A DNA stretch of 64,000 nucleotides from Eledone cirrhosa (lineage: Eukaryota), in NCBI GenBank assembly GCA_964016885.1, contig OZ024741.1, forward strand, positions 198,152,001 to 198,216,000, written 5' to 3'. The position numbers were made by a program, and so were the translations under genes. Below the pieces are notes generated by a model, which saw only the letters and a list, made by a program, of their open reading frames with translations, had not been told where the DNA came from and did no database searches. Shown here one piece after another: positions 846 to 61,029 of the stretch; position 1 is the stretch's first letter; each line of letters opens with the position of its first letter.

Positions 846-927
846 GTTATTCCCGGTTGAATCGGAGGTAACCACAGTAAGTAAGGTACTCAATACATAG
901 CAGAGTATAAAAGTTTTAATATACATG

Positions 928-977
928 AGATTCTACAGGACTAGAACTGTTTCATTCTTTAGAAATCATCAGGAATA
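928..977 (-). ncRNA. Type I hammerhead ribozyme motif (same family as 29384-29434)
   Basis: Minus strand reads attc-CTGATGA-tttctaaagaat-GAAAC-agttctagtcct-GTA-gaat. Confidence 0.75.
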
Positions 978-6939: not shown

Positions 6940-9900
6940 GTCGCCAACAAGATCGGGGCAGGCATGCGAATAGAAGGATCGATGAGACTGACAAAGCACG
7001 GGCTGCGCGTCTGGCAGAACAGAGGGAAAGAGACAGAAGAAGGAGAGATCATGAATAGGATGGTCGGAGAGCTGCGCGTCTGGCGGAACTAAGGGAAAGA
7101 GACAGAAGAAGGAGAGATCATGAATCCGGCGGTCGGAGAGCTGCGCGTCTGGCGGAACAGAGGGAAAGAGACAGAAGAAGGAGAGATCATGAATCGGATG
7201 CTCGGAGAACTGAACGTCTTTGCCAACAAACCATTAGGGATAGAGCAAGGACAGTTCAACGTCGTGACCTCTCTGCTGATGTTGGACAGATGAATAAGAT
7301 CTGTGTCTGTTGTCATGCAATGTTTTTTCATGGTTAAACTGCTAACCTTTTGCTGTATGAATGGAAAAGTCAGGTTGGGGTATCTGCAGCCTTTACCCCA
7401 GGAACTTCACAGTTTATTTAGTACTGATCAACCTAGGGCAACGAGTTCAGGAAGAACCTCAGACAATACAACTGCCTGTTCCAAATGACATCTTTTGGGG
7501 CCGAAGAAGTTCGTTCCTCAAGGAGTGGATGGAATCCTTCTATTGTTATTCATGGTCAAATTCACCATTACATCGGTTCCTTAACCCCTAATCCCAACGA
7601 ACAACCCCAATTTCTTTAAATTTACTTCTTGGATCCTCAGGATAGTGTTGATTTGAGGATCAGGATACTCCATAACGATGGCATTCAGCGCGACATAGTT
7701 GAATTATTGGAAATAATACTCAGACAATATAACCCTTACGTTGCTTCATTTCGAATAGCAAAAGAACAAATTAAAAATATTCCTGAGGCTTCGATTATTA
7801 TTGATCCTGATAGGAGACCAGCAATGGAACATGAGAGAAGATTCAATGCACAAACTGCAAACGAAGTTGCCGTTATTATACAAAACAACACCGAACTTGA
7901 AGGAAAAGCACGGCACATTGTGTTGAAAGAAAAAGGCGGACAATTGCAAATAATCTCAGAGTCCCATCGGTCTTATGACAGTTTGCAGTATGTTGTATCT
8001 TTTCCTTTTGGCGATGACGGATGGCATCATGAGCTGTTAATGAGCAACAAGAAGTTGATGCCAATGCGCTACTATGCCTATCGAATAATGAACCATGAGA
8101 ATGAATTCAACCAACTTCTCAGAGACGGTCGTTTATTTCAGCAATATTTGGTTGACATGGCTGTGAAGATTGAAGGAGATAGACTGCAATACATCCGAAT
8201 GAATCAAACATCATTGCGATCTACAACATACATGAGCCTTACTGACGCATTGAATGATGACGATTTTCGCAATATTGGCAGGCGAATCATACTCTCTTCC
8301 ACATTTGTCGGGGGACCGAGATATATGATGGAGCGATGCCAGGATGCCATTCTTCATCACAATGACATGCAATCCAAACCTATTCCTGAATCAGAAGCCA
8401 CATGACAGGCCAGATTTAATTGCCAGAGTATTTGATTTGAAGCGGAAACTGTTAAGAAAGTATCTTACTGGAGTAGATGGCCTATTTGGCAAGTGTATTG
8501 CTTACCTGCTGACAGCCGAATATCAAAAGCGAGGTCTTCCTCATGTGCACCGTTTGATATGGCTCAATGAAGCCTCTAAGCCCAGACCGCAGGAATATGA
8601 TAAATTTGTTCAAAACGAAATACCAGATCCAAACAAAGATCCAGAGGGTCATGAGATGGTGCTGAAGCACATGATCCACGGTCCGAATTGCTCTAACAAT
8701 TCGCCGTGCTGGAAAGATGGAACGTGCAGTAAGCGGTACCCTAAGCCTTTCAATGAATATACATTGTGTGGAGAGGACACTTATCCTGTGTACAGAAGAC
8801 GGTCTTCAGGAATGGGTGGTTCCCTACAATATGAAACTATTAAAACTGTTCAACTGCCACCTAAATGTAGATATGTGCTCTTCCGTGAAATCGATCAAAT
8901 ACGTTATCAAATATACCATGAAGGGCAGTGATCAGGCAATGTTTGGAGTGAACAGGGAAGATGAGATAACACAGTATTTAACAGGAAGATATATCGGTCC
9001 TTCAGAAGCTGTTGCCTTGGTACTTGGATTTCCAATTCATGAGAGAGAACTGGCCTTAGTTCGCCTTCAAGTCCATCTACCTGAGGAAAATCAAATCTTC
9101 TTTCGGGTCAATGCTGCTGTAAACAATAACATGGCTAAGACGACTCTGACTGAGTTCATGGATCTTTGCGATCGCGATCCGTTTGCAAAAACATTGTATT
9201 ATGCCGATGTCTCAAAGTTTTACACTTGGAGTAATAAGAGATGGGAAAGGAGAAAGGTGGGGAAAACAGTTGAGCAGTATCCAGGGATTTTTGAGCGAAC
9301 GTTTTGGGAGGAGTATACACTGTTTCTCCACGTGACCTGTATTATTAAGACTCCTTCTACATCACGTCAAAGGGCCAGTATCCTTCAACTCTTTGAAAAT
9401 GTGTGATGGAGAACTCCTGCCATTATTCAAAGACGTCTGCAGAGAGAAAGGTTTGCTTCAATCGGATGATCATTGGCAGCAGACTCTGAAAGATGCTGAG
9501 CGAACAAGGCTTCCCAAAGCCATGAGAGATCTATTCATCGTTCTCCTCACAAATACGGAAATTGACAATTCCAGTGCTTTATGGGTTCGATTTAAGCATT
9601 CGCTGTCTGAGGATTACCTTCAAATAGAAGCAAGGGCTACCAGGAACTCTAACCTTTTGATTAGCGAGAGACATTATGATCAATGTCTTCTGTATTTTGA
9701 AGACAAACTTAACGACCTGGGCAAAAGTCTTAGTGACTTTAACTTGCCAAGGCCAAATAATATTGTTGCTAATCAGGATAATCGCAATTTGGTGTTATTG
9801 CATGAATTGCAATACACCAGAGAAGAGCAGCGACGATTTGTAGAAGAGACGGAGCCTCTATTGAATAGTGAACAAAAACACGTGTATGACTTCGTTTGTA

Positions 9901-11990
9901 ACAGTTTAGAGACGAACACATCTGCATTGATTTTCATTGACGCTCCAGGTAGAACAGGAAAGACATTCCTGATTAACTTAATTCTTTCAAGTCAGGGGAA
10001 ATGCTGACGTGGCTATTGCTGTTGCGTCATCTGGCATTGTCGCAACACTGATGCCTGGTGGAAAAACAGCACATTCTAGGTTCAAAATACCGATAATAGT
10101 GAAAGAAAATGGTCTGTGCAACATTGATAAAAACTCAAAGACGGCAAACATCTTCCAGTATACAAGGCTGATTGTTTGGGATGAGTGTCCTATAATTCTG
10201 AGGGAAGGCTTCGAAGCTGTTGACCTCATTCTGCGACAACAATGAGGCATTCGGTGGAATTTTGACAATTTGCTGTGGCGATTTCCGTCAGCTTCTTCCG
10301 GTAGTGAAAAGGGGAAATGAAGCGGACGTGGAAAACGCCTGCATTAAAAAATCCTACTTATGGCGAAGCTTCAAAAGATTTCAGTTGAAGACAAACATGC
10401 GATTGGGTGGAGGAGCAGGATACTATTCACAGTCACTATTGGATATTGGAGAAGATAAGATATAAAAAAACTGAAAATGAGGAAATTATTTTGCCAAAAG
10501 AAATGGTTCTCCAAGCAACAACTATGGAAGAATGTATTGATTTCATCTACCCCTCATTCGACAATCCAGCTGAAGGGTTTTAGAACAATTGCATCTTAGT
10601 ACCTCTCAATGAAATGATGAGAAGCATCAATTCCACCTGTATTAGACGCTTCCCTGGAACCATAAAAGAGTACCGATCCTATAATTCTGTGAGTGATGGT
10701 GCCAATGCCATTCCTTGATTCGGTTGAACTATCAGGACTGCCACCACATAACCTGGAATTGAAAAAAAGGATCGCCAATAATTCTTATGAGGAACTTGAA
10801 TCCTCCAAGGCTTTGTAATGGAATGCGCATGATCGTGGAAGAACTGCACGACAATCTCATAGTAACAAGAATCAACACTGCTGCTTTCAGAAATGAGATC
10901 GTTATGATACCTAGAATAAGAATTAATCTATCCGAAGGTGAGGATATCCCTTTGCAGCGAAGCCAATTCCCAGTTCAATCGTGCTTCGCTGTGACTATTC
11001 ATAAAGCACAAGGACAAACTATTGGTTTATCTGGAACGACCTGTATTCCAACACGGTCAACTGTATGTAGCCCTTAGCCGCGGAAAACGAAAAGAAAATG
11101 TCAGAGTGCTTATGAAGGACACCCAGTCAACTAAGAATGTTGTTATCAAAAGCATTCTTTTGAACAAACTGTAACAGCGTAAATATGAGAAAATGTTGAT
11201 TCCGACGTCAGAAAATGAAAGGAAAAGAAAAAACTAAGACAAGTAAGAATAATTTCTTTCAAATTTTTGTAAATAAAACCAGCTTTTCATTAACATTGCA
11301 CATTTTTAAGCAGAAAAATCTTTCAGAACAAACAGTCAAGCATCCATAGAGATATAGAAAAAAGAATTTTGAAGTGGAGTGGATAGCTATTAGTGAAAAA
11401 TGATTTGATATTTTCTTTGTGAAAATACTTGTGAATAATACAGTGAAAAGACAAGTTTCGCGTAAATCGGACCACGGGTTCCCGAGATACGCGGGGGGTT
11501 TTTTCGGATACCTTTATAAATATTCAAATCAGCACATAATGGGAAAATACTTTGAAAGTAAGGTACCATTGAAATGTGAATACAAACGCAGATAGTGGTT
11601 GTGTGTGAGAGAGAGAGAGAGAGAGGGGGGGAGAGAGCTGGTGGTGTTGTTGAATGAAATTATGACAGGTGACTTCAAAGAATTGAATACAGCATTACTG
11701 TATCTAGCTTGAATTTGGTGACTCAATATTAAGTTATATGCATCTTATAACTTGTGTTAGGACAGGATGTATGTGTGTGTGTGTGTCTGTGACCAGTGTA
11801 TATAGGCCACAGACACCCACACACACAAACACATATATATATATACACATACATATACACACACACATACACGTATATATATATATTGGCTTTCCAATGT
11901 CATTTTACATTATATACATTTTGTGTATATTTTAATTATTTAAAAATTATTTTTAAGTGAACATGACCCAACGGGTCACGGGTGGTCTAG
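6940..11990 (+). mobile_element. Helitron (autonomous type, decayed); 5' end uncertain
   Basis: Fragmented RepHel coding region, a 3' hairpin tgaccc-aac-gggtca (11964-11978) and terminal CTAG (11987-11990) followed by T in (TA)n. Confidence 0.85.
7000..11163 (+). pseudogene. Helitron Rep (HUH, Y2) / PIF1-like SF1 helicase pseudogene, frameshifted
   Basis: N-terminal 69-bp (23-aa, STPR-like) repeats; CCMNGKV zinc motif; Rep motifs FITMTCNP, EYQKRGLPHVH and KYVIKY; helicase motifs DAPGRTGKT, IVWDE, GDFRQLLPVV and FAVTIHKAQGQT, spread over many ORF fragments. Confidence 0.93.
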
Positions 11991-18181: not shown

Positions 18182-18591
18182 CGTCGTCTCTATATATTCC
18201 ATTCCGCCGCCGATCCCGGGATCTCCTCCGCTAGCCTTTGGAGGAGATAGATTCCCACCAGGTCCGTCACCTGTGCGGAGTCATTCGACCCCATCGTAAT
18301 ATCGAAACTATCGGGTCTGTCCCTCCTTTCTATATTCATTTTAGTATGTATATATATATATATATATTTCGTTTCTGAATTTGTTTAGCAAGATTCTTTA
18401 TCTGAAATCGTGTGTTGAAACCGATATTGTTATACTTTGGGAGGGTCATGTTGCCAATAAGAAACACACGCACCAGTTGCTTTCACTTCAATTTATTATA
18501 TATTTATAAATTTATAAATTTACAAATCTACAAACTTATAAATTTCTGGTTGGTTGGTTGGTTCCACAACCAGATAGTTGTTTATATATAT

Positions 18592-18636
18592 AGTCATAGT
18601 CCTTTCGTCACACACTCTGTGACCTCTTCAGTGACT
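18592..18636 (-). ncRNA. Minimal type I hammerhead motif (mirror copy)
   Basis: Reverse complement of 18776-18820. Confidence 0.7.
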
Positions 18637-18775
18637 GGGGATTCCTTTCTTCGTTTCTGTGCCTTTTCTTTCTTCTATCCTACGCCATTTTGTTTCTGTG
18701 TGTGTCACACACACAGAAACAAAATGGCGTAGGATAGAAGAAAGAAAAGGCACAGAAACGAAGAAAGGAATCCCC

Positions 18776-18820
18776 AGTCACTGAAGAGGTCACAGAGTGT
18801 GTGACGAAAGGACTATGACT
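18776..18820 (+). ncRNA. Minimal type I hammerhead motif
   Basis: agtca-CTGAAGA-g-gtcaca/tgtgac-GAAA-ggac-TA-tgact. Confidence 0.7.
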
Positions 18821-19251
18821 ATATATATAAACAACTATCTGGTTGTGGAACCAACCAACCAACCAGAAATGTATAAGTTTGTAGATTTGTAAATTTATAA
18901 ATTTATAAATATATAATAAATTGAAGTGAAAGCAACTGGTGCGTGTGTTTCTTATTGGCAACATGACCCTCCCAAAGTATAACAATATATATATATATAT
19001 ATATACTAGAATGAATAAAGATGTCGTGTCTGAGAAAATTACAGACAGGCGCCTTATCGCCTTCAAAGAAAGATTCAAAGAAATAATTTCGAGCTCTTAT
19101 AAATTCAAAAACGAATGACATATATCTAAAAATATATCAAACATTAACAGGAGATAATTTGCTAAGAATGTAAGAAAATATAATTTCAAATGAGCAATAT
19201 ATTGAAATTTTAAAATATTAAACGCAAATACCTGACATTCATTAACTATTT

Positions 19252-21708: not shown

Positions 21709-24700
21709 AACTATGCCTGTAAATAATATTCTTCTTTCTTTCCCATTACCTTATCATGTTCCACATCACCCTTTTTTTTCTTTTTTTCTTTTTACTTCAA
21801 AAACCTTGTTTGTAAATAATATTATTCTTTCTTTCCCATTTCCTTAACATGTTCAACATCACATTACTTTCTCTCCAACATTTTATACCAATACAAATTC
21901 CCCCTTTGATAATGCATAAAATGCTGAAACCGGTAATAAACAATTATTAAATATATAAATAAATGCCATTGTTAATTAATTAATAAATTAACTAATACCT
22001 TAACACTTCACACAAAGTTAAATATTTTGTTTTAAACATTTTCTAACCCAGAAAAAAGAGAAAAAATAAAAGGAAAAAAAAAAATTTTTCTTCCTAATAA
22101 TCGTCTTTTTCTCCCTATTTTCATATATATATATTCCAACTCGTGTGCTCCTTCTCCATATTTTATAATTATTATTTACCCCCACACGAGATACAGAAAA
22201 TGCCAACTAAAACAAAAACAGACTCTACTCTCATTAACATCAATCAAGAGATACTCCAAGAACTACAAAAAATAAACTCTAATTTGTCAATACTCACCAA
22301 CAAACTTAATTCTACAAGTGAAGAAACAATCCCAAAATACACATCCTATGAAATCAACGACAATATCAACAACTTATGTGAAACAATAAAAACACATCTG
22401 AATAACAACACCAATCCTATTCAAGCAAACGTAAAAACACATGACACTAATACACTTACAACTTACGAAGTAAAAAACAAATTAATACCACAATGGTACA
22501 CATCTCTTAAAAACAGGAAATTCTCCTTTTGGAAGATGATACAAAATAATAACAAAGCGGAGATCTATGAAAAATGGATTCATTCATCCCCATTAATCCT
22601 TCCCCGCAAACTAAATCCATCCCAAACGAACCCGAGACACAAAGACGCCTCAGGGAAAGAATGGCACTTGATAACATAAAAACCGAAATTGAACTCCTTA
22701 AATTGAGAGCCCAAGCAAATGAAGATAGGATCAAATCAATCGACGATGAGATTAATCAAGCAATCATCAATAAAACCAAAGACACCACCCTAGAAAATAT
22801 TTCAAAACTAACTATGGTTAGAGGACTGTAATAAGGAAGAATTAAAATCTCTTCAACGCTTGGAAATAAACGAAACCTGGTTCTCTAACTATGAAACACT
22901 TTTCCAAAAAGAACACACACCCAAGAACCCCTTCATTAAAACCAAAATAACAAGAAAACCCAATCACCACCCAAACACTACACAACAACCAACAACAACA
23001 AAAAACAATACCTCCCCACATACCAAAAAAAGAGGGATCTCCTCGCCCCTACCTCCTACACCCACCACATAGCTACCACACGGATTCCCAAGCAACAAAT
23101 ATAGTAATAGAGAAACATCAGCTACAAGATAGCCACTACAACTTCTCTCCCACCAGGAGAAACCATAGAAACCCCCACACTTACAACCCCCCCTAACATC
23201 CCCACAAACCCACAACCATCATTACTTCCAACATAGAACCCAAAATACACAACTACCACACATGCCACATAGGGCCTCACAACCACACACCAACTATAAG
23301 GAAACCCTAATCTACCCTCCTCCACTAACCACATCCTACTACAACAACACCAAAGGGGACAATACAACCACACGAGACACCCTAACCACTACAACCAGCA
23401 TAACTACACACCATACAACAACAACAACAGCAGGACTCAATATAACCACACAAGACAACCCTACTACAACTACCACCAAGTCTACACACCCTACAACAGC
23501 AGGGCTCAACACAACCATACGATACAAACTAACTTCAACAACCACCACAACTACACACCCTATAACCACGTCCATCAAATCTACACACCCTACAACAACA
23601 GCAGGGCTCAATACAACCACACGATACAACCTAACTTCAACAACCACCACAGTTACACACCCTCTAACAACAACAGCAGGGGGCCAATACAACCATAAGA
23701 GACATCCAAACTTCAACAACCACCACAACTTCCGGAGTCATTTTTCAGACACAGGGTAACAAGATAACACAAAACACACAGGAGACACAAAATGTAATAA
23801 AAATCGTTAATTTAACCTCTAAAGAATTAACAACAGACCAAATCAAAATACTCTCCAAAGGTCTGACATTTACACCAACTCCCCAACAACCAAACTGCCC
23901 CGAAATGAAGGAAGACTCAGCGAGCAACTATACGACAAATCCAATGAGGATGACTCAATAGCCAGAAATAGAAGTAACTATACCCCACCAAAAGGCAAGA
24001 ACAAATTCCTCGATCAATTCTACGAACACATTACTAATTACCCATACCACCGCCTACACAGAGATAAACAAAAACCAAACCTAAGCAAAAAAAAATGGAA
24101 TGGTCTTAACAGTCTAAAGAACGACAAAACCCTAACAATCAAGGAGGCGGATAAAGGGAGTGCAGTAGTCCTTATGAGGACAGATTACTACACAACTCTA
24201 GTACTCTCAACTCTAGAAAACCAAACATATTACGAAAAGGCCCAACACTACACACAACAGAAAATAATGAGAAACCTAAAATCCCTAACAACCCTTTACA
24301 AAGAAGGCCTTACCGACAAGGAATACAACTACATCACCAATTTCAAAAGCAGAACCAGTCTTTTCTATGGTATCCCAAAGACGCACAAAAGCGAAGTAAT
24401 AGGCAAGGCCTGCAAGTAAGCTACAGACATTTACATCAATATACCCCCTCCTGATGACCTTAAATTAAGACCCATAATAGCAGGTACCACATGTGAAACC
24501 CACCGCCTAAGCAACTTCCTAGATATTCTGCTTAAATCTTTCCTAAAACACATAAAAAGCTTTATAAGGGACGACCTTGACATGCTCAACCACCTCCCAA
24601 CAACACTTAATAATGAACATACACTACTAGTAACCTTTGATGTCATCAATCTATATTCCAATATCCCACACAACCTAGGTAGAGAGGCAATACAATTCTG

Positions 24701-26535
24701 GCTTGAAAATTTCCCTAGTGAACTTCCACAGCGCATCCCTAAATAATTTGTGTTGGAGGGGGTCAAATTCATCTTGGAAAACAACTTCTTCGAATTCGAT
24801 GCCAAATACTACAGACAGAAATCTGGGACTGCCATGGGCACGAAAGAAGCCCCCTCATACGCCAACCTTGTCATGGGATATTTGGAAACCACTCTCAACC
24901 GCAAAGTCCTAGACAAATACGGTAACCACTTCTACCTACACATAGAAAAGATATCTGGACGACTGCTTCATCCTCTGGCATGAAAGTATAGAAAGACTGA
25001 GTTTTAAAACCTTCTAAATGGACTCAACACAAACTTACAATTTACAATGGAATACAGCCATGAACAACTCCCTTTCCTTGACATCCTCACCAAGAAAACA
25101 AACAACAAAATAGAAACAGACATATACTACAAACCCACAGACTCCAAACAATATCTTCCATTTAACTCGTGCCACCCTCGCCATACCAAAATGGCAATTC
25201 CTTATAACCTAGCCAGAAGGATCTGCACAATAGTTTCAGATAAATACACATGCTACACACGACTAGAAGAATTAAAGAACACACTTATCAGCAGAAAATA
25301 CCCACCATCCCTAATCAACAATGGATTCAAACGTACCCTAAAACTCAACATCTAGGAATTCAGACACCCCAAACCCAGGAATGAACCGCAACAGAAAACT
25401 CTACCATACATCTCCACACACAACCCCCTCAACAATGAGGCATTCAACACCATCCTCCAGAACATTCCTTTATTAAAAAGAGACCGAAGAATGAACAAAA
25501 TCCTCCAAACACACAACATCATGAAGAGCAAAAGACAACCTAAATCCATAAAAAACATCCTCACACAAGCCAAAATCCAACCAACCTTCACAATGAACCC
25601 TACAGTAAAAAAATGCAGAAGGCCCAACTGTGGTATATGCATAAATTTAATAGAAGGTTCAACATTCCATTTTAAACAAGGACAACATTTCACAGTTAAA
25701 TACAACTTTACATGTGCATCTGAAAACCTAATCTATGTTTTGACCTGCTCAGGTTGTCGACAGCACTACATAGGACAGACAAAAAAAAGCCTCCGACAAC
25801 GTATGACCGTCCATAGATCACTAATCAAAATACAGGAATACAGAAAGATTGCTTTTAGTGAACATATCGCTAATTGTACACCTAACCAACATCCAAACTT
25901 AAACATTTTTCCCCATTTACAAATTCATAGACAACACTTCTTTCATCCGTCGTACCAATAAGGAAACGTACTTCATTAACAAATTCCAACCTCTACTTAA
26001 TGGACTAAACCTCGGACTAAACTAATACTGGAACGAACAAGGAACCAAAGCCCGATCCCTATGTTCTCTAAAGAGTTACCTCCCTTACACCCTACCTAAT
26101 GCTTTTTCTTATATAAATGAATTACCCCCTCTCATTTCTCTCTCCCATACCTGACCACCCTGAATTGCCTCCCCCTGCATATTAACTCTCTAAAAAGGGA
26201 AATCATATCAAACCCCAGACTATTATTTGCCTCCATTATGGACCAACCAAGAGCTCTTGCCATAATAACACATTTTGAAGCGCTTAACCTCAAGGACTAT
26301 GCCTGTAAATAATATTATTCTTTCTTCCCCACTACATTATCATGTTCCACATCACCCTTTTTTTTTCTTTTTTTCTTTTTACTTCAAAAACCTTGTTTGT
26401 AAATAATATTATTATTTCTTTCCATTTCCTTAACATGTTACATTACTTTCTCTCCAGCATTTTATACCAATACAAATTCCCCGCTTTGATAATGCATAAA
26501 ATGCTGAAACCGGTAATAGACAATTATTAAATATA

Positions 26536-26745: not shown

Positions 26746-28304
26746 TTTCGTTTCTGAATTTATTTAGCAAGATTCTTTATCTGAAAACGTGTGTTGCAAC
26801 CGATATTGTTATGCTTTTGGAGGGTCATGTTGCCAATAAGAAACACACGCACCAGTTGCTTTCACTCCAATTTATTATAAATTAAAGAATTTATTAATTT
26901 CCTGTTGGTTGGTTGGTTCCACAACCGGACGGTTGTTCATATATTGTCAAAGTTCTTTCGTCACACATTCTGTGACCTCTTCAGTGACTACGGATTCTTT
27001 TCTTTGTTTTTGTGCCTCTCCTTTGTTCTGTCCTACGCCATCTTGTTTTTGTGTGTGTTGTGTGCTTAGTTTGCGCATGTGTTACATCCGGGTGTCTGTG
27101 TGTTTGAACATTTCGGGGGTCCGTATGGCTCTGGTCCACCCGTTCCATCTATCTGTGTTGGTTTTCTTGACCATTGAGGTAATGGTAGGTGATCTGCCTC
27201 TTGCTGGTCTTGTAGGGTACAGGTTGCTAAGGTCATATGTATCTAGATAATCATTACTATAGGTAAGTTTAAGTAGGAGTCCCAGCTCACTGGTATCAAT
27301 CCCACGGAACAAATTTTGGAATAGAATAGAAAGAACTAGGAATAAGGTTAATAGAATAAACTCATGGTATGATAGCAATAAATACCAGAGTGTAATGTTC
27401 ATCAATACAACCCCGAGAGATGAATTATCTTACAAATTTAGAAGGGCTCTAGATAAACATAAACTCAATATTAAGATAGTAGAAAGACCAGGTACCTCCA
27501 TAAAAACACTTATTAGCAATGCATAACCTTTTCAAAGACCTCCCTGTATAGATAAGACATGTATAATCTGTAAACTAAGCCCCCATATTAACTGTAAAAC
27601 TAGAAATGTAGTATATAGCAACAGATGTACTGAAGGGCAATGTAGAGATAAGAATATAGTGTACATAGGTGAGACAGCTCGTAGTATAGGAGAACGGATA
27701 AATGAACACTGGCGAGAGCTTCAAGATATAAAAGAATCATCTGTACTCCACGAACATGCTAAAATAGAACATAAGGGTAAATTAGAGAACATAGAAATAA
27801 AAATAGAATCTACACACAGAAAAGACGCAATGTTTAGTCAAATCACAGAGGCAATAAACATAAATGAACTCCAACCAAAATTAAATAGAAAACATGAATG
27901 GAATAGCAACATCACAACTTACAATTAAGGACAAAATGAAAACACACACACATAGAACAAACAACCAACTAGTAACATGTAAATAAACAAATAAATAAAC
28001 AAATATAAACACACACAGACATCCGGATGTAACACATGCGCAAACTAAGCACACAACACACACACAAACAAGATGGCGTAGGACAGAACAAAGGATAGGC
28101 ACAAAAACAAAGAAAAGAATCCGCAGTCACTGAAGAGGTCACAGAATGTGTGACGAAAGAACTTTGACAATATATGAACAACCGTCCGGTTGTGGAACCA
28201 ACCAACCGGAAATTTATAAATTCTTTAATTTATAAATTGGAGTGAAAGCAACCGGTGCGTGTGTTTCTTATTGGCAACATGACCCTCCCAAAGCATAACA
28301 ATAT
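26746..28304 (+). mobile_element. 5'-truncated Penelope-like element with inverted pLTRs around a GIY-YIG remnant
   Basis: Inverted repeats about 26803-27105 and 28007-28304; ORF 27659-27928 YIGETARSIGERINEH…HEH…EAININELQPKLN; HHRs at 26946-26988 (-) and 28126-28168 (+); same pLTR family as 18368-18988. Confidence 0.88.
28126..28168 (+). ncRNA. Minimal hammerhead motif (mirror copy at 26946-26988, minus strand)
   Basis: gtca-CTGAAGA-ggtcacagaatgtgtgac-GAAA-gaac-TT-tgac. Confidence 0.65.
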
Positions 28305-29007
28305 ATATATATATATATTAGAAAGTGAGGTTTTTTTTACAAAATGAAAAATAACCGAGGTGTCCTACACGAGTGAAAGTATAAAGAAAAAGAGATGAAA
28401 TCGAAAATGCAACTGAAGTCTTATTTTTTTTTAAACTATATATATTTATTTGGTTCCTTTACCGGTTTCGCAGTTCTTCTGCTTTTCAAAAGGTGAGTTG
28501 AGATGGAGGGTCTGTGGTTTTTCTCACATCTGGTTGGTCTCTGAATATTACTTGTTTTATATGGAAAAAGTGGCTCGAAATTCCAGGTTTTTCGAGAAGT
28601 AATTTGATTGGTTTGTCAATAATTATAATAAATTTCGCGCCAGTTCGCGTTACAATAGTTCTTCAAATAAGAGAGGGGGTTGTCACAGGTTGTTTTTTTC
28701 ATATATGAGTGTTTGAATTTCTTTTTACTTGAAAAAAGGAGGCTCACGAAGGCTTTTTTTTGGTTGGTTATAAATGAAATTTGGCTGTCACGTGAACAAG
28801 TTTTTATTACATTTTTGCGCCCTTATTTGGAAAACTATTCTGTAGTCTTTATAGTGAATGTTATGACAATGGAGAGATAGTGGTCAAGAGAAAAGGGATT
28901 GGGAGAAATGTTCTGGTTCAGTGAATATGGCCAGCTCGCCGGGGTGTCAGAGTTCAGATTTTCTATTGAGACTAAAGATATGTATGTTTATTTGTGTGCT
29001 TGTGTGT

Positions 29008-29086
<79 letters not shown>

Positions 29087-29338
29087 TATTGGAAGATGAT
29101 TCTATTAGTAGAGATGGGGGAGGGAGTTGTGTGTGTGTGTATATGGGTGTTATGTGTGTGTGTGCGAGTATGTTAAGATGGAGAGAATATATATTTTGTG
29201 TGTGTGTATATATATATGTGTGTGTAGGAAAGTGGTTCTATTAGTAGAAATGGGGAGGGAGTTGTAGGTGTGGGGGTTGTTATGTGTGTGTATGGGTGTT
29301 ATGTGTGTGGGAGTATGGTTAGCATGTTAAGATGAAGA

Positions 29339-29383
<45 letters not shown>

Positions 29384-29386
<3 letters not shown>

Positions 29387-29434
29387 TTCTACAGGACCAG
29401 AACTGTTTCACTCTCCAGAAATCATCAGGAATCT
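29384..29434 (-). ncRNA. Type I hammerhead ribozyme
   Basis: agattc-CTGATGA-tttctggagagt-GAAAC-agttctggtcct-GTA-gaatct. Stem I is a perfect 6 bp. Confidence 0.85.
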
Positions 29435-29634
29435 GGGCATCAAAAAACAAATACGGTATCTATAGGTCTCCACAAGTGGCAGGAGAGGGTGGGGAGTGGG
29501 ATGGGCGCAGGTCATTGGCCGACAGAAAAGGGAACCCATCAAAAGCCAACTCTACAAAGCTATAGTTTATTTCTACCAACCCTTGTCTTTAGAGTAACAA
29601 AGGCAGACAGAAATCCATAAACAGGTTCCGGACG

Positions 29635-29926
29635 GCACACCATTCCCTGTCACCAGGTCTCTCCCAAGCCAACAGATGTCTATAAGATCAGTGGGGGGCC
29701 AGTCATGGCAGATAGAATTAAAGGAAAGGGAGACTCTTCAAAAGCCAAATTCACCAAGGTTCTACCAAGTGACAAAGGCCCAGAGAATTCTGCAGACAGA
29801 CCCAAAACACTGAGCGCATATCTTACAACCATCCCCGAACTTCCCCCAAACTAATCAACCACATGCCAAAAATCAACAGACACATTCACAAAAAAACACA
29901 CTCACTCACACACCCGCGCGCAACCA

Positions 29927-29982
<56 letters not shown>

Positions 29983-30773
29983 TAAACATATATATATATG
30001 TATGGTGCTTTTTCCTTATATATGTGTATGTGTGTGTATATATATATATGTATGTGTGTGTGTGTGTATGTATATGTATATATTTGTTTATGTATATATA
30101 TATATATATATGTGTGTGTGTTTGTGTGTATGTGTGTGTGTATATGTATATATATATATATGTGTGTATATATGTGTGTATTATATATATGTATATATAT
30201 ATATATATATATGTATGTATATATATATATATGTATGTGTATATATATGTATATGTATGCACATGTATATTTGTGTGTATGTATGTATGTGTGTGAGTGT
30301 ATATATATGTGTATATATGTGTGTGTGTATATATATGTGTGTGTGTATGTATATGTATATGTATGTGTATATATATATGTGTATATATATGTGTGTATAT
30401 ATATATATATATAGATATAAATATATTTATATATGTGTGTGTGTTTCCATGTGTGCACATGTGTATGTGTATGTGTGTCCATGGCCGCGCGCGAGTGTGT
30501 GAGCGAGTGCACTTCCCTGTGAATGTGTCTGCCGACCCCTGGCACACAGTTGATCAGTCCAAGAGAAGCCCGAAGACAACTGTAAGATATGCACTCAGCA
30601 CCTTGAATCTGTCCACAGAATTCCCCAAACCCTTGTCACTTAGTAGAACCTCAACGAACCTAGCTTTCAAAGAATCTCCCCCTCCCCCAACCCCATCCAC
30701 CATGACTGACCCCCCACTGACCCCACAGACATCTGCTAGCCCAAGAGAAACTTAATGACAAGGAATGGCATGC
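29635..30773 (-). other. Long G-U-wobble-rich RNA hairpin (arms 29635-~29995 and ~30415-30773)
   Basis: Manual ungapped alignment of 256 nt gives 78 differences, all transitions, 77 of which form G-U pairs on the minus strand. Confidence 0.92.
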
Positions 30774-31276
30774 ACACAAATAAACATACATATCTTCAGT
30801 CTCAATAGAAAATCTGAACTCTGACACCCCGGCGAGCTGGCCATATTCACTGAACCAGAACATTTCTCCCAATCCCTTTTCTCTTGACCACTATCTCTCC
30901 ATTGTCATAACATTCACTATAAAGACTACAGAATAGTTTTCCAAATAAGGGCGCAAAAATGTAATAAAAACTTGTTCACGTGACAGCCAAATTTCATTTA
31001 TAACCAACCAAAAAAAAGCCTTCGTGAGCCTCCTTTTTTCAAGTAAAAAGAAATTCAAACACTCATATATGAAAAAACAACCTGTGACAACCCCCTCTCT
31101 TATTTGAAGAACTATTGTAACGCGAACTGGCGCGAAATTTATTATAATTATTGACAAACCAATCAAATTACTTCTCGAAAAACCTGGAATTTCGAGCCAC
31201 TTTTTCCATATAAAACAAGTAATATTCAGAGACCAACCAGATGTGAGAAAAACCACAGACCCTCCATCTCAACTCA

Positions 31277-31314
31277 CCTTTTGAAAAGCAGAAGAACTGC
31301 GAAACCGGTAAAGG
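31277..31314 (+). ncRNA. Hammerhead variant with U3:A8 core (mirror copy at 28456-28493, minus strand)
   Basis: cctt-TTGAAAA-gcag/ctgc-GAAAC-cg-GTA-aagg. All three stems are intact. Confidence 0.7.
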
Positions 31315-31383
31315 AACCAAATAAATATATATAGTTTTAAAAAAAATAAGACTTCAGTTGCATTTTCGATTTCATCTCTTTTT

Positions 31384-31433
<50 letters not shown>

Positions 31434-37666: not shown

Positions 37667-37737
37667 TGAGGTACATGGGACACGAACCCACATATTTGGT
37701 TTGCCGGACCAATGTGTTACCATTACACCAACACGCC
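37667..37737 (-). other. tRNA-like SINE head
   Basis: Minus strand has A-box-like tggtgtaatgg and B-box-like ggttcgtgtcc. It sits within a local inverted repeat (about 37595-37690 and 37925-38025). Confidence 0.35.
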
Positions 37738-39522: not shown

Positions 39523-41390
39523 GCTTTATTCACATTGCTGACAATTGTTTCTCTGAACTGGTAGGTCTAGAGATCGCTACCCGCCTGTTTTTGCGTCAAT
39601 CGATCACCAATACTTTGTTATAACCAGTCAGTTCATCAGAGCGTGCGAGAATGAAGGGAATACACAGGCATGGCTTCTATATATAGTACGTCATTAAATC
39701 AGAACAATATTAACCATACTAGCAATACTACAATAAATTAGCTAGACCGTAAATATTTAAAATAATCATAACATCAATCTAAGTAAGACATAGAGTATAC
39801 TGATGAATTTAGCATGTAAAACGAGCTGATACGAAGCAGATGTATGAAATTGACATGTAAAAGCTGTCATGGGGTGTATTATATATAGTGTAGAGATAAC
39901 CTGGGGCTTGAAACAATGGACCATTTACTTTACTGTAGGTTTGCTGACCATAAGAATTATTTATTATCTGACAGATAAAATATTTTCATTGTAGTGAGGA
40001 TGGTAATTTTTATGTGGTGTAAAGCGGATTCATTATTTAAGTGGTCTATATTAGATGAAGGGATTGTTAGTTCGAATCATGGGGTGGTTTAGCTTTCACG
40101 GCATCAATAACACATCATGCATGGATAAGACAACAATAATAATAATAACAGCAATATAGTAAGTAAGTTAATACAGAGGTTAAGAAGCAAGGTATATATA
40201 GAGAGAACATAATGACTACAATTACGGATACATTGGGGTGGTCATTATAACAGCAGGGGGAAGGTGATATTTCAAGGAGTGTGGTAGTAGTCAAATAATG
40301 TACTTGGAATTAAGTTCATCTGTTGAGAATCAAGAGTGAGGAAGTTGTGTTGACAGCAACAGAGAAGAGATATATTTATGGGCTGATAAGATATTTGCAG
40401 ACATTACTGTGGTATAGAATTAAGGAGGCTAGAAGCTGCTTAAAGAATATTATAGTTCTGTGGTGCTCTGTGTGAGAGTGCGGATTTCATATGTTGAATG
40501 CTAAGTTATGTTGATTCGAATCACGGTGGCTTAAATCTTGTGAATTTAGTAGCGATCCTGTGTCTGCAGAAAATTGACCTTTCTATCTTGTTGTTGAGTA
40601 GCCTTTTATCGTTCCTAAGGATATATAGTAATTCAAGGTCGCAGAGCCTACAATAGGACATACCGGTACTATATGCCCTTGCGGCCGACAACCTCGACCA
40701 GTTGATATTGTAGTCGATGTTTTTGTCCTTAAGTTCCAGATTTGTTTGGCGAGGGTTGTAGAACCTATTAGTGCACGGTTCTTCATCGAATGTCTGTGCA
40801 CATACCATCTTTTTTTAAAAGTACCCGTGGTGGATCCAATGTAATGCCAAGTGGAGTTGCCCGAGTTCACCATATACATGTGCACTAGGCCCGAATCAAG
40901 GCACCTGTTCGCCAATGGGCACCTATTTGGTAGGTGACAATTGCAGTTTGCGGTGTTAGTCCGTGCAACTTCCACGCTGCTGTTTTGTACACTGCTATAA
41001 GTGGGTTGTGATTCGTGCCCATTGAGGTTTCGCTGCGGCGCGTTCGTATGCGTTTGCGGTTGTGATACTGCGATGTGTTTATGTTTAGAATTTGGTGGTA
41101 TGTTGCGCATAGGTGGGGCGGTCTCCCTAGAGGTATTTCTGTGGTTGATCTTGCGTATGTGGGATTCTATATTTGCAGCCGTAGAGTATGAGAGTTTTAT
41201 AGTTTTTCTATTGAGGAATTTATGATATCTATGTGATATAGGGAAGTGTTTATCTATTAGTTTTAAAAAACACAGAGAAGTTGAAGATTGGATTAAACCA
41301 CAGGTATTTTCTTTCTCTAATTCTTCTATAGTTTCTAGGGTTTACATTATTCGTGTTTGGACTACCTATAACAATAATTTGTTATCCCGT
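39520..41390 (-). mobile_element. Penelope-like 3' end: GIY-YIG remnant, 3' UTR and HHR
   Basis: CNCHLPNRCPLANRCL…YIGSTTGTFKKRWYVH, and CRLCDLELLYIL…CRHR. HHR at 39531-39645. Confidence 0.82.
39531..39645 (-). ncRNA. Type I hammerhead motif with long stem II
   Basis: gct-CTGATGA-actgactgg…ccagttcaga-GAAAC-aatt-GTC-agc. Confidence 0.7.
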
Positions 41391-52140: not shown

Positions 52141-53983
52141 AAGAATGAGAAATAAGATAGATTGGCGGGACGGGCGGGTTGGAATTGGAAAAAATGTCTT
52201 TAGATAAAAAATAATTGTTTCTACGTTAGGCACAAGGCCAGCAATTATCCAGTGCATTACTGGTACTTTATTTTATCGACCCCGTAAGGATGAAAGGCAA
52301 AGTCAACCTCGGCGGTATTTGAACTTTAGATAAAAATAATAAGTCCATTCATGTTGACATAAAAATAACAGGTCCATTCCTGTTGACATCTCTTGGAAAA
52401 CTGTTGATGCTGGCGTTTTGTGTATGACTTTTTTTTTAGAAAAGTGGATGATGGAGCACGTCTACCTGAAATGAAAAAAAAACATTTTGTAAAAAGAGCT
52501 ATACTTGTGCACGTACGTAAGCATGTGTGTGTGTGTGTGTGTTATTATACGTCCGTACGAAGCTAAGAAGATATGTGTTTGTATATGTAAGTAAAAGAGT
52601 GTGTGTGCATGTAAGTACGAAGCTATGAACAAAAGTATGTTAATATAAGGTAGTGTATGTGTGTATACAGAGCTGTGAAGGGAAAAGTGAAGTGTGCATA
52701 TTTCGTCTGTATTAGTTGTAAGAGTAGATGTTTATGATCATGAGTGAGCGATGGGAATCTAGGGGGAAAGGTACAAGCGCGTGTGATAATGGACGAGGTA
52801 TTAAATAAATTGGGGAGGTGAGTTGAGTCCAAGAGGGGAATAGGACTCAAGGCGGTGAATCAGACTCTGTTCAGTCCTGGTGCGTGAGGCCTGTGATCCA
52901 TGATGTAAAAGGACACCCAGGACTTAGACATGTAGGGAAGAATGACCAGGAGAACAGAAATGACGGGCGACAGGTGTATCCAAACCGAGTAGTATGTCCC
53001 TCAAATGCTCAGCAAAATGGTCTGCCATACGGCGTCCCGTTTGTCCGATGTATAAAGACCCGCAAAGGGAACACCGGAGGACATAGACAACGTGGGTGGA
53101 CGTGCAGGTGAAAGAGTGGCAGATATGGAAAGACCCGTTAGGGCCTGTGAGAGTGGTGAGAGTGAAAATGAAGGGACAAGTGTTGCAGTGAGGACGAGAA
53201 CAAGGATGAGAGCCGGGTCGAGTCATGGGAGAGGACGAGAAGGAACTGCATACCAGGAGATCGCGGAGGTTACGGGTGCGCTTAAATGCAGTAATGGGTG
53301 GGTTTGGAAAAAAGCGAGAAGTGACGGGGTCAGAGAGGAGAGTGCGGAAGGAACAGAGGATATGTCGCCGGACTGGTAGGGTGATGGGTGGTAGGTAAGA
53401 GGGAAATGAACGCGGGTGTTGGGAGGGTGCGGGTGAGGTGAGAGGGCTGTGGTACGGTCTGTTTCACGGGCGCGGATGAGAGCAGCTTGGATCAGGGTGG
53501 GTGTATATCCATGCTGGAAGACGCGGGAAGCCATGTGAAGGGAATAGGTTTCGAAATCGTCGTCCTGGCTACAGAGCCGACGAAGACAGAGGAATTGGGA
53601 ATAGGATATGGTGTGTTTGGTGTGGGTTGGATGGGAGGAGGTGAAGTCCAGGTAAGAGTAGGAGTCTGTTGGTTTATAGAAGTTGGAAGTAGAGAGGGTG
53701 TGGTGAGAGTGATTAATAGATAGAGTGATATCTAGAAAAGGGGGGAGAAGAATCAGAGACAGGGTCGGTGAAAGTGAGAGCAGGGTGGAAAGATAGATTT
53801 CTTTATTAACAGGATGGAAAGATAGGACAAAAGTAAGAAAGCAGTCGAGCTGTTCTCGTGTTAGACAGGTGGCGCCGATACAGTCGTCGGTATAACGACC
53901 GTATGGCTCAGGAGTCGGTCCAGCGTACTGGGAGAAGATCTGAGCGTCAAGGTAGCCAACAAACAAGTTGGCATAGTTTAGAC

Positions 53984-54843
53984 CAAAGATTCTCAACGGG
54001 GGGCATATGCACCCCCCGGGGGGCGTTTCGGAACTCCAGGGGGGCGTTTGGGAGCAAGTTCGCGTTAGGGGGCCGTTTGGAGCTGGGGGAGGGAGGGTTG
54101 GGGGGGCTTAAAGGGAGCACTGGAAGGCTCTTTATTTTGGTAAGTTTTATAAGCCATATTTGTATGTCTTTGAGACAGCCAGTGTGAATGCATTTGAATG
54201 AGCTTGCAGACAGCATAACTATAGTCTGGCCGCAGCTGTGAGCAGGTGTGCAGGTGTGCAGGCATGTCAGGTAATTGAGACGTTAACCGGTAATTGAGAT
54301 CCTAAAAATGGAAAAACCCACAGTCAACTGGGTCAAAGACACTTTGAGTGCAGCCAGTTAGAATCTTATCTTTCCTTCACCGATAACAATGTATTTCATG
54401 TCTGTAATTATTGATTCAACCGTAACGAGTTAACACTATGTAGATCTATTTTATTCCCTATTGTATAAATAATATTACAAATAAAAAAAAGAAAAGAAAA
54501 AACAGAAGCGAGTAGCCCACACATCTAGGACGACATACAACACATAATCAGATAATACACACATCTAGGACCACATACAACACATAATCAGATAATACAC
54601 ACATCTAGGACCACATACAACACACAATCAGATAATACACACATCTAGGACCACATACAACACATAATCAGATAATACACACATCTTTGGAATATTGTTA
54701 ATCAATTTTTTAGTAATCTATTGATATAAAAATCAGTAGTATATTGAAAAATGGAAAAATAGGGTGGCGTGGGGGGGGGGGGGCGTTTCGTGATTTCGGG
54801 GGACAAAAGGAGGCGTTTGGCCTAAATGGGTTGATAACCTGTG
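53984..54843. mobile_element. hAT-like MITE inserted in the Penelope RT
   Basis: Imperfect TIRs caaagattctcaac / gttgataacctgtg; degenerate 8-bp TSD gtttagac / gtttaccc; splits the RT motif MGTRMG|NYANL; internal 40-bp repeat x4 (54518-54686). Confidence 0.8.
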
Positions 54844-57029
54844 GTTTACCCCCATTCTGGTTCCCATCGCTACCCCCAGAGACCTGCTGATAGAATTCAC
54901 CCGAAAAGGAAAAGCCATTGAGGGTCAGAACAAGCTAAGCCAGGCGGAGAAGAGTGGTAGTGCTGGGGTAAGGGATAGGGCGTAAGTCTAAAAAATGTTG
55001 GAGAGCGCGGAGGCCGTCCTCGTGAGGGATGCCGGTATAGAGAGAGGTGATATCCAGGGTAAAGAGAAGGAGAGAGGGACCAGGGGGGGAGGAGAAGGAG
55101 TTGAAGAGTCTAAGGGCATGATTGGTATCGTGGATGTAGGAGGGAGGAGGGGATGAGTTGGTGGATGGTGGGGGACACGAGTTGTTGGGAGCCAGGAGTG
55201 GGGTCGGAGGATAAAGGGCGGTAAAAAAGGGTATTGTGAAGCTGCTGGCGGAGAGCCTCAGCCCTATAGAGGTCAACGTTCCAAACCACCACAGCGCCAC
55301 CTTTGCCAGCGGGTTTGATGACAATGTCATCGCGACGCCGAAGGTTGCGAAGTGCGGAGATCTCAGCCTGCGTGATGTTAGAACGTCGAGAATACTGGTG
55401 GAAACGGAACCGATTCACTGTATGCCGGCAAATATCGACAAAGGAGTCGAGGGTGCTGAACTGGCCAGAGCTCGGCGTCCAATTTGATTGCCGGCGACTG
55501 AGGCGAGTGAAGTCATCCGTCTGTGATGATGATGGCGTGTCGTGAAAAAAAGCTTTCAGCTTTAATCGAGGGAAGAACCCTTCAATATCGGCACGTGTGC
55601 GAAACTCGTCGCAGGTAGATGTGTTGGTATAAAACGCAACCCACGGGCGAGGAGGAAGTGCTCAGCTTCGGAGAGTGGTAGGTCCTGGGGTATGGTGACT
55701 ACAGTGCAAGGACGTGAGGGAGTGAAAGGGGCGGAGGCGGAGGCGTTAAGGTGGTTGGGCAAAGCGTGTGCAGATTCAGTGGTGGGGAGAGGAAAGGGGA
55801 TGGTAGGTGACGGAATAGAGGGGTTATGGTTGGAGGTGATATGAGTATGGGTGGTGACCGCAGGCGGGGAGCGGAGTGAGTGGAGTTTGTGGTTTTTTAT
55901 GGAAGTGATGAAATTGAAAAGGAGGCGATTAAGGTAAAAGATGAATTAGATAATGGATTGGGCGAGGAAGGGGTGGTAAGTGGAGGAGAGATGGAGGTAG
56001 GCCTTGGGGAGATCTCGGTCGAGAGAACGGATTTTCGCGAGAGTTGATCGAATAGTCACTCGCATGAGCTGGTGAGGGGAGTGGGTAAGGATGGGTTCAG
56101 TGGTGGGAGCAGAGTAAGAGGTGGGTGTAACTTGAGGCCAAACCTCGGGGAATGAGGTGTGGTGGAGACAGCGACTTATAAAGGTAATGTGACTATTATA
56201 TCGTGTTTTGGTGACGATGAGGTTGGAGAGATGCAGGGAGGATTGGATGCATATAGGGGGTAGAGGTTGCAGGAAGTGCTTGAGAATGGAATGGAGAAGG
56301 CGGAGAAAAGATTTGAGATTGGGCATATTGAAGGTACTAGGGTGGGAGTGAAAAATAGACGGTGGTGTAAGAATATTGTAGTAGAGGAAAAGTGATAGAG
56401 AGTCGTGGAATACTTAAATGCAAGAAGCAAAGAAAATTTCAATGATACGAAAGATTTCCTGGTGGAAGTTCAGGTATACTTCGGGTTGGTATCCAGTTTC
56501 GGGGTGAAAATCCAATTTGAACATCCAACGAATTTGAGAGGTCCACGTAAAGCGTTGATATATCTGTGAGAGTGGTGAGGGTGGAAATGATGGGACAAGT
56601 GTTGATGAGAACAAGGATGAGAGCCGGGTGGAGTCATGGAAGAGGACGAGAAGGAACTGCGTACCAGGAGGTCGCGGAGGTTGCGGGCGCGCTTAAATGC
56701 AGTAATGGGTGGGTTTGGAAAAAAGCGAGAAGTGACGGGGGTCAGAAGAGAGGGTGCGGAAGAAACGGAAGCTATGTCGCCGGAGTGGTAGGGTGATGGG
56801 ATGGTAGGTAAGAGGGAAATGAACGCGGGTGTTACATGTACACTCCACTTTTCCTTTCACTGCTCTGTATACACGCATACACACCCTTGTATTAACATAC
56901 TTTTGCTCATAACTTCGTACTTACATACACACACACTCTTTTACTTATATATACACACATTTCTTCTTAGCTTCGTACGGATGTATAATAACACACACCC
57001 ACACACACACACATGCTTACGCACGTCAC

Positions 57030-59666: not shown

Positions 59667-61029
59667 ATATATATATATATATTATATATATCAGTGAATT
59701 AGGCGTGTGCGTATGTGTGTGAGTGTGCACGTGGAGGCATGTGTGTGTGTGTGAGTATGTGACAGCGTGTGTGTGTTTGATGGTGTGTAATTATTTCTCG
59801 TTTTGAATGTAAATATGACAATGCCGTACGCTAATATATAAATATTTACGTATATTAATGCTTCTATGTTTGTATGTGCATGGGTGTGTGGATGATTTAA
59901 GTAAATATTCATATGAACATGATCTACGCGTGCTGTCCCAAAATTATATAAATGAGTATATCAGCTAGACACACGTTACAGTTTTATTTCAGTTTTATGT
60001 TGATATAATTTTAAATGTTTCGAAATCAACGCAGCACATTATCCATACTTAGCACATACTTTCTATTACAAACATGTGTGTGTGTGGGGGGGGGGGTCTT
60101 GAAAGCATATGTTATGGTGTATGCATGTATGTTTGTAACACTATGCATGGATGCAAGTCCTTTAAAAGATATATACATAAATACATAAATACATATATAC
60201 ATATATACATATATACAAGTATACTTAGATACACATACAATTACACATATGTATTCCGATTCCCGCTAGATTTGTAACTAATAGTTAGAGTTCAATCATG
60301 ATACTATGCAAATCCTTGTTTTCTGAGATAAGACATGTATGTATGTATGTATGTATGTATGTATGTATGTATGTATGTATGTATGTATGTATGTATGTCA
60401 GGTCACCAGTTGGTGCTACTGGTAACATGTATCCCAGTACAACCTGTCTCATGGTCGGGTCGTTGGCGACTAAACTGGCAACCCCACCAAGGTTTCTTGG
60501 TGAGGAGGGTGACTTTGAACATCCTGCAGGACTAAAAACAAAACCTGTCAAAGGGCAAAGGAGCTCTTAAGAGTCAGTGGCAATCCAAAATCACCGGGAG
60601 AGATGACCCCTTAGCCTTTGTCAAGCAGAATTCTAGGAGAATGAAAACTCTGATATAACACCTGCAACCCTGATGGTATCCAATGATGTTGACTTGTTCT
60701 TCTTTTTGGTAAATATCATCTTGATCAAGAGAGTGGGACTGGCTTTGTGCAGTGCCTTTGCTCACTATAAAAGCTTCACGGCACAGGCATTGCTTTATAT
60801 CTGGAGATCACTCTGCACTTGTCGTCACATGGTACCATGGGCCCAGCGCTATGTGTCAATAATTGTCACAAGTATGGTGTTTGTACCAGAGTTTTCAAGT
60901 CGCTGGCTGGACTAAAAAGTCACACTCGTTCAGCGCATCGGTAGGGGTTCTCCTACATGGATATAAAGTAGTGGCCGTACTCGAAAACGAGTTGGCAGCC
61001 ACCATGTATGTATGTATGTATGTATGTAT

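Follow-up and report, generated by a model that had tools for sequence, protein, structure and literature searches.

The window analysed here is a stretch of 64 kb (C2:198152001-198216000) from the 3.0-Gb genome of Eledone cirrhosa, and it contains two copies of one hammerhead motif, at 930-976 and 29386-29432. The pair raises the question of whether the few differences between the copies record RNA editing of the second one. No third copy of the motif occurs elsewhere within the 64-kb window. In a gapless alignment, which reproduced the count given in an earlier note, the copies mismatch at 4 of 47 positions (942/29398, 955/29411, 959/29415 and 960/29416), and at all four the 930 copy has T and the 29386 copy C on the plus strand; read on the minus (ribozyme) strand, these are A and G, respectively. 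Taken as A>G changes, the difference at 29398 falls in loop III, that at 29411 turns an A-U pair of helix II into G-U, and those at 29415 and 29416 fall in loop II. The catalytic core had been described as untouched, and indeed its six conserved adenosines (29425, 29422, 29408, 29407, 29406 and 29390) are identical in the 29386 copy. The two copies lie in the following features.

29383-29432, minus strand: minimal hammerhead-like motif of type I with an unaltered core and four A>G changes, belonging to a non-autonomous repeat of high copy number.
846-976, minus strand: unedited 5'-truncated paralog, comprising the hammerhead motif (930-976) and about 85 nt of the family 3' tail, flanked by (TA)n runs.

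Polarity of the four hammerhead changes

The core boxes and cleavage triplet of the 29386-29432 copy stand in type-I order, and the core columns are invariant or nearly invariant across 12 aligned copies. In the same 12 copies 92.9% of helix cells are paired, compared with 30-55% in slid controls, and 2 of the 13 hammerhead pairs are altered on both sides. Hammerhead models of Rfam matched neither the edited nor the unedited copy, at the gathering cut-off or at E up to 5, so that the name hammerhead depends on the core boxes and helix pairing, and self-cleavage is a prediction; minimum-energy free folding of three copies did not return the hammerhead fold. The motif forms the 3' portion of a repeat that measures about 630 nt, to which a 5' microsatellite is added, and that lacks coding capacity (the longest open frame in an unedited family body has 65 codons). 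Family copies are both dispersed (9,727 motif matches, at least 826 bodies) and tandem (a 78-bp array). The array, at about 30.6-30.76 Mb of C28 (L004-L009, L107-L111), is long, its 78-bp monomer corresponds roughly to the hammerhead alone, and it resembles the hammerhead satellites of newts and schistosomes. Twelve subfamily-2 bodies also lie in tandem at C1:83680182-83692105, with a spacing of about 1.08 kb. Head-to-head hammerhead pairs, the arrangement that the proposed source requires, were present in 28 of 105 fetched loci, a non-random sample in which duplicates were kept. No autonomous element tied to the family was found among the fetched loci, where no Penelope frame is directly joined to a hammerhead. 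Within the window, another repeat with a hammerhead-like core (core matches at 18631, 18781, 26984 and 28130) forms near-perfect inverted pairs at 18424-18988 and 26803-28304, without a G-U skew.

A census of the family gave the direction of the four changes. The search pattern, of 34 nt with the four sites free between T and C, had 9,727 exact genomic matches. Of the 100 matches listed first, which all come from the beginning of C1, 99 had T at all four sites and one had C at 29416. C at 29415 was found in 40 of the 9,727, 38 times at that site alone, once at two sites and once, in the window copy, at all four. In the nearest subfamily, T on the plus strand (A on the minus) is present at 29398, 29411, 29415 and 29416 in 47/48, 47/48, 48/48 and 36/48 copies, and the 23 copies of the second subfamily have no C on the plus strand at any of the four sites. 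The family thus has A at each of the four sites and the derived copy is that at 29386, which bears out the A-to-G polarity proposed in the earlier note; the opposite outcome, a consensus with G, was looked for, and the consensus has A, leaving the interpretation unrefuted.

The four sites would nonetheless be insufficient by themselves and make only a weak case for editing, because each G is found in some minor subfamily: that at 29416, an allele of an older subfamily, in 12 of 48 sampled copies, those at 29398 and 29411 together in L025 and L027, and that at 29415 in the 40 matches mentioned above. It could be that the L025/L027 subfamily, with G at the equivalents of 29398 and 29411, descends from a lightly edited founder. 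The four differences might thus be ordinary subfamily alleles, or the result of gene conversion, independent of any hairpin. We regard this as very unlikely, given that the window copy alone among the 9,727 matches carries all four G, that, T/C sites apart, its diagnostic sites all agree with subfamily 1, which itself has A at the four positions, and that the adjoining 200 nt hold 26 further A>G changes. The chance of four T>C out of four is about 3e-4 under the family substitution spectrum (T>C in 74 of 582 differences among family copies), a figure that ignores subfamily alleles.

A probably edited fold-back stem

The four hammerhead changes are part of 116 same-strand A>G changes confined to the stem of a 1.4-kb fold-back. 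The fold-back is made of two copies of the element in head-to-head orientation: the left copy spans 29383 to about 29995, and the right copy starts at about 30000 and breaks off at 30769. Beyond the hammerhead itself, its parts are as follows.

29433-29639, minus strand: left element body without a surviving partner arm, edited.
29640-29995, minus strand: left arm, with the element sense on the minus strand and G replacing 34 of 80 adenosines within 29640-29930, running into the element microsatellite.
29996-30420, no strand assigned: loop of the hairpin, unedited, formed by the right element's 5' microsatellite part.
30421-30769, minus strand: right arm, an inverted copy of the same element ending at 30769, with 52 of 108 adenosines changed to G in 30478-30769.

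Compared with the family majority, the insert (29383-30769) has 119 differences, of which 116, spread over both arms, are minus-strand A>G changes, and 116 of 270 stem adenosines (43%) are changed. In the left arm 64 of 66 differences are of this kind (64 of 162 adenosines), as are 52 of 53 in the right arm (52 of 108 adenosines); at 30421-30484 the right arm has C where family copies show T. The reference was the per-column majority of 52 of 70 loci, leaving out 3 self, 6 satellite and 9 duplicate loci. Against this majority, copies of the nearest subfamily show 0-9 mixed changes per about 548 nt and those of older subfamilies up to 60, likewise mixed. Between the left arm and the nearest single copies there are 59-62 T>C differences on the plus strand and just 2 of any other kind. 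The second subfamily, the commoner one at 29793, already has G at 3 of the 64 left-arm sites (29508, 29780 and 29793), the removal of which leaves 61. Just 9 of 117 A>G changes lie in CpG, so reversed CpG decay is inadequate as a cause. A near-perfect (CA)n run occupies 29928-29975, where family copies have a mixed CA/TA repeat, and the edits seem to have purified this microsatellite.

The arms are oppositely oriented, yet the change is on the same DNA strand in both, and 88 of 89 arm-to-arm mismatches are of the G-U type on the minus strand. This G-U skew (71:1:0) is unique to the edited hairpin among the 14 inverted repeats listed in the window. The loop at 30018-30420 has 201 T and 2 C on the plus strand, that is, at most 2 edited sites in 203, as opposed to 116 of 270 in the stem (p=2e-31). 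The edited fraction also varies with the 5' neighbour (U 47/75, A 50/92, C 10/50, G 10/53, in a tally of 117 edits that includes one from a thinly covered edge site). A 5' G is depleted (10/53 after G versus 107/217 otherwise, p=5e-5), and there is no preference for a 3' G (25/54 with versus 92/216 without). Depletion of 5' G in all species studied, with no 3' G preference in invertebrates, is described in the accessible text of PMC5625713, and the same 5' rule for hyper-edited sites in that of PMC4365171. The direction and strand of the changes are directly observed, as are their density, stem restriction and 5' neighbour bias, and the last three fit with hyper-editing of double-stranded RNA (dsRNA). 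The genome has matches to PF02137 (A_deamin) on C6, C1 and C25, and the frame on C6 matches structures of human ADAR2 (E 3e-102); an ADAR2-like deaminase is thus encoded. A high-depth contig of the family from an independent sequencing run has the unedited base at the edited sites.

Could the changes instead have arisen on DNA or during reverse transcription, through adenine deamination in a fold-back single strand or a hybrid, or through biased misincorporation? The genomic record is silent on which nucleic acid was hit, and a review raises the idea, described there as untested for retroviruses, that in RNA:DNA hybrids the DNA strand might be subject to ADAR editing (PMC12925331, in the part available). 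Polymerase bias or hybrid editing would, however, mark the loop too, whereas the changes end at the stem and spare the flanking Penelope copies; a density of 43% with this 5' neighbour bias is moreover the pattern of dsRNA hyper-editing. We therefore hold an origin on DNA or in reverse transcription to be distinctly improbable.

Editing extends further than the surviving hairpin arm. In 29383-29639, the 257-nt stretch without a partner, 30 of 31 differences are A>G on the minus strand and 30 of 82 adenosines are changed, a rate equal to that of the paired stem (34/80; Fisher p=0.52). The context bias is seen here as well (25/55 after U or A versus 5/26 after C or G, p=0.03); nine of the sites have G in at least one sampled copy, and 20 of the 30 changes are private. 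The hammerhead differences had been put forward as small, independent support for editing beyond the surviving arm, and such editing is found. Given that the partnerless stretch is edited as heavily as the stem, the template hairpin was likely longer than the present one, with a right arm that we infer to have continued through the hammerhead. The hammerhead comparison is in this respect a correct but small piece of a larger, well-supported case.

Seven narrow genome screens for edited copies returned one other probable case, L142, and an ambiguous one, L141; several of the seven match the window copy only, two match nothing, and one is in effect a single-site screen for subfamily 2 (G at 29793). 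No clustered editing was found at 19 dispersed loci with G at 29415. L142 (C20:11772586-11772784) is a short hammerhead palindrome, arranged head to head, in which four sense A>G changes are common to both arms, a fifth, at a core adenosine, occurs in one arm, and a few changes of other kinds are present. It is a probable second edited template of the hammerhead family, and the sharing of four changes between its arms suggests that this template was edited before the pair arose. As far as the seven narrow screens reach, the process is apparently rare in the family. In the window copy, 4 of the 10 non-core adenosines of the motif are edited, matching expectation, and the chance of zero edits in the six core adenosines, given the context rates, is about 0.04 (post hoc); three of these six are preceded by G, a poor editing context. 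The intact core is a weak hint of selection.

Stepwise selection for a functional rod-like RNA might also build G-U pairs, and the hairpin is still stable after the changes (a duplex energy of -469 kcal/mol, compared with -527 before). All the changes are A>G with none C>U, though, the edited copy is single and young (3 other differences per about 840 nt), and no intermediates appeared in the screens for edited copies. Such a history is barely conceivable.

Penelope flanks, source and proposed route of insertion

The insert is embedded in Penelope sequence, as set out below.

28301-29345, minus strand: 3' untranslated part, unedited, of a Penelope-like element that is young and autonomous.
29341-29382, no strand assigned: (TA)n tract internal to the Penelope 3' part, forming the left junction of the edited insert.
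30772-31390, plus strand: inverted, unedited second copy of the Penelope 3' part.

Both the Penelope identity of these flanks and their unedited state are direct observations. In other copies an open reading frame with a reverse transcriptase and, C-terminal to it, a GIY-YIG endonuclease domain lies upstream of the Penelope repeat (RVT_1 at E 6.5e-7 in the L082 frame; GIY-YIG at E 2.2e-7 in the L077 frame, whose stop codon is 233 nt before the repeat). The edited insert joins the 30772-31390 copy at a 2-nt microhomology (30770-30771). That copy and 28380-29002 have two private variants in common and a few later differences, and a 79-nt Penelope tail is present on the 28301-29345 copy only, not on its inverted partner. 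An inverted 5'-truncated partner, a tail at one end and a microsatellite target make up the same layout in L080, L082 and L083, and the available text of PMC8557442 describes this layout for Penelope insertions. Penelope-like elements are also described as inserting into or beside earlier copies (PMC6765202, accessible part). Elsewhere in the window there is broken Penelope-like coding sequence at 22100-25960, 27527-27928, 40583-41341 and 52924-55660 (similar to the L076, L077 and L082 frames), a 799-codon open frame with RVT_1 and C-terminal C2H2 fingers at 60967-63366 that is possibly a young LINE, a frameshifted Helitron helicase-like coding sequence (PF14214) at 7620-10007, and a tRNA-like match (47 bits) on the minus strand at 37667-37737, which may be a SINE head.

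Editing in situ was rejected for this locus, since it would also mark the perfect outer arms, and these are clean. One A/G difference between the outer arms (28974/30797) was considered as an edit and rejected: the family has G in 13 of 13 copies, making it a G>A change in the left copy. The 29386 copy retains bases 3' of the predicted cleavage site at 29390; the insert was therefore not primed at a self-cleaved end, and this uncleaved 3' end gives no sign that cleavage was needed. As for the source, a genome search with the junction pattern matched only the window copy. Three loci were tried as the source and set aside: L119 and L120 have the variant at 29613 in common with the insert but depart from it at 12 and 8 further sites, respectively, and L081, although close to both repeat families, does not form a head-to-head pair with the window junction.

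An assembly artefact, in which an edited cDNA or a faulty consensus entered the contig, is another account of the insert. Its sequence is known from the assembly alone, and the edited copy was not seen in one independent contig-only sequencing run, though contigs cannot show absence. On the other side, the insert is contained in a contig of 416 Mb and its junctions are those typical of retro-insertion, its flanking copies have private variants in common along with a few later changes, and sequencing error would not be expected to yield a stem-limited, context-biased A>G pattern. We consequently give an artefact very low probability.

The insert, as known from the assembly, is very probably the product of an ADAR-hyperedited fold-back RNA of a non-autonomous hammerhead retroelement, transcribed from a source locus that we infer, and reverse-transcribed into a Penelope-type insertion. 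A head-to-head pair of hammerhead elements elsewhere in the genome would have been transcribed through, its RNA folding into a stem no shorter than 600 bp in which the hammerhead took part, and ADAR would have deaminated about 43% of the stem adenosines in both arms. The Penelope reverse transcriptase may then have begun at the (TA)n tract beside the 3' side of the hammerhead, reading inosine as G, and halted at 30769, with loss of the outer right arm. The cDNA would have been joined by the 2-nt microhomology to the inverted Penelope copy, either through template jumps in one insertion or by a later insertion into an existing inverted pair; both routes fit. A bolder extension is that ADAR acts as a heritable mutagen in this genome: inosines might loosen the fold-back that buries the hammerhead and blocks reverse transcriptase, such that only edited, core-intact hairpins are captured by Penelope enzymes and returned to the germline, seeding new G-bearing ribozyme subfamilies. 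This further proposal we consider doubtful.

Meaning and comparison with known systems

If the insert derives from an ADAR-edited RNA, it amounts to a dated record, from a single molecule, of ADAR activity in the germline, in which the edits of one RNA are frozen in DNA, with the unedited loop as an internal control and thousands of unedited sister copies as the reference. It would constitute a route by which RNA editing alters inherited sequence without a virus. The edits in the hammerhead would show that the template hairpin exceeded the surviving one, which fixes the direction and the end point of reverse transcription. A simple screen for inverted repeats in which every mismatch is G-U on a single strand can be applied to any assembled genome. 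In a limited literature search we found no report of A-to-G or ADAR-edited copies of Penelope, hammerhead or other retroelements in an invertebrate genome. Work by Carmi et al. in 2011 and by Hajjar and Linial in 1995 may be relevant to novelty.

Two components of the case are already known, namely the A-to-G hypermutation of reverse-transcribed inverted repeats in avian retroviruses and the APOBEC footprints in genomic retroelements, going by the accessible portions of the sources cited below. ADAR-type hypermutation has been reviewed for Rous-associated virus as well as avian leukosis virus (PMC12925331), where, as here, an edited RNA was converted to DNA, the changes lie in an inverted repeat and nearly half of the adenosines became G. 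Unlike in those viruses, the template here would be a non-coding fold-back of a host repeat and the carrier a Penelope-type element, and the product is found in an assembled animal genome. Clusters of hyper-edited RNA (PMC4365171, PMC5625713, parts available) are similar in their dense A>G changes, inverted repeats, depletion of 5' G and, in invertebrates, lack of 3' G preference, but they are RNA-DNA differences, whereas the changes described here are within the genome sequence.

APOBEC-edited LTR retrotransposons likewise carry a deaminase footprint in a retro-inserted copy, polarised by the family consensus, although APOBEC leaves G>A along the sense strand of the element, whereas the changes here are A>G, confined to a stem and, in two opposed arms, on one and the same DNA strand; in the text available, the APOBEC footprint is reported as absent from 19 invertebrate genomes (PMC4866542, PMC2873906). 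For human L1 in cell culture, no RNA editing was found according to the accessible part of PMC5224506. The nearest relatives of the elements themselves are Penelope-like elements and animal non-LTR retrozymes (PMC8557442, PMC6765202, bioRxiv 10.64898/2026.07.22.740005). As far as these sources could be consulted, they share with the elements described here a minimal hammerhead-like motif of type I, tandem hammerhead arrays, 5' truncation, an inverted copy at the 5' end, a tail at one end, (TA)n targets and insertion into Penelope copies. The available text of PMC8557442 and PMC6765202 reports no edited Penelope or retrozyme copies. The hammerhead family differs from these elements in its loop III, of 8 nt here as opposed to extremely short, and in that no autonomous partner was linked to it among the fetched loci.
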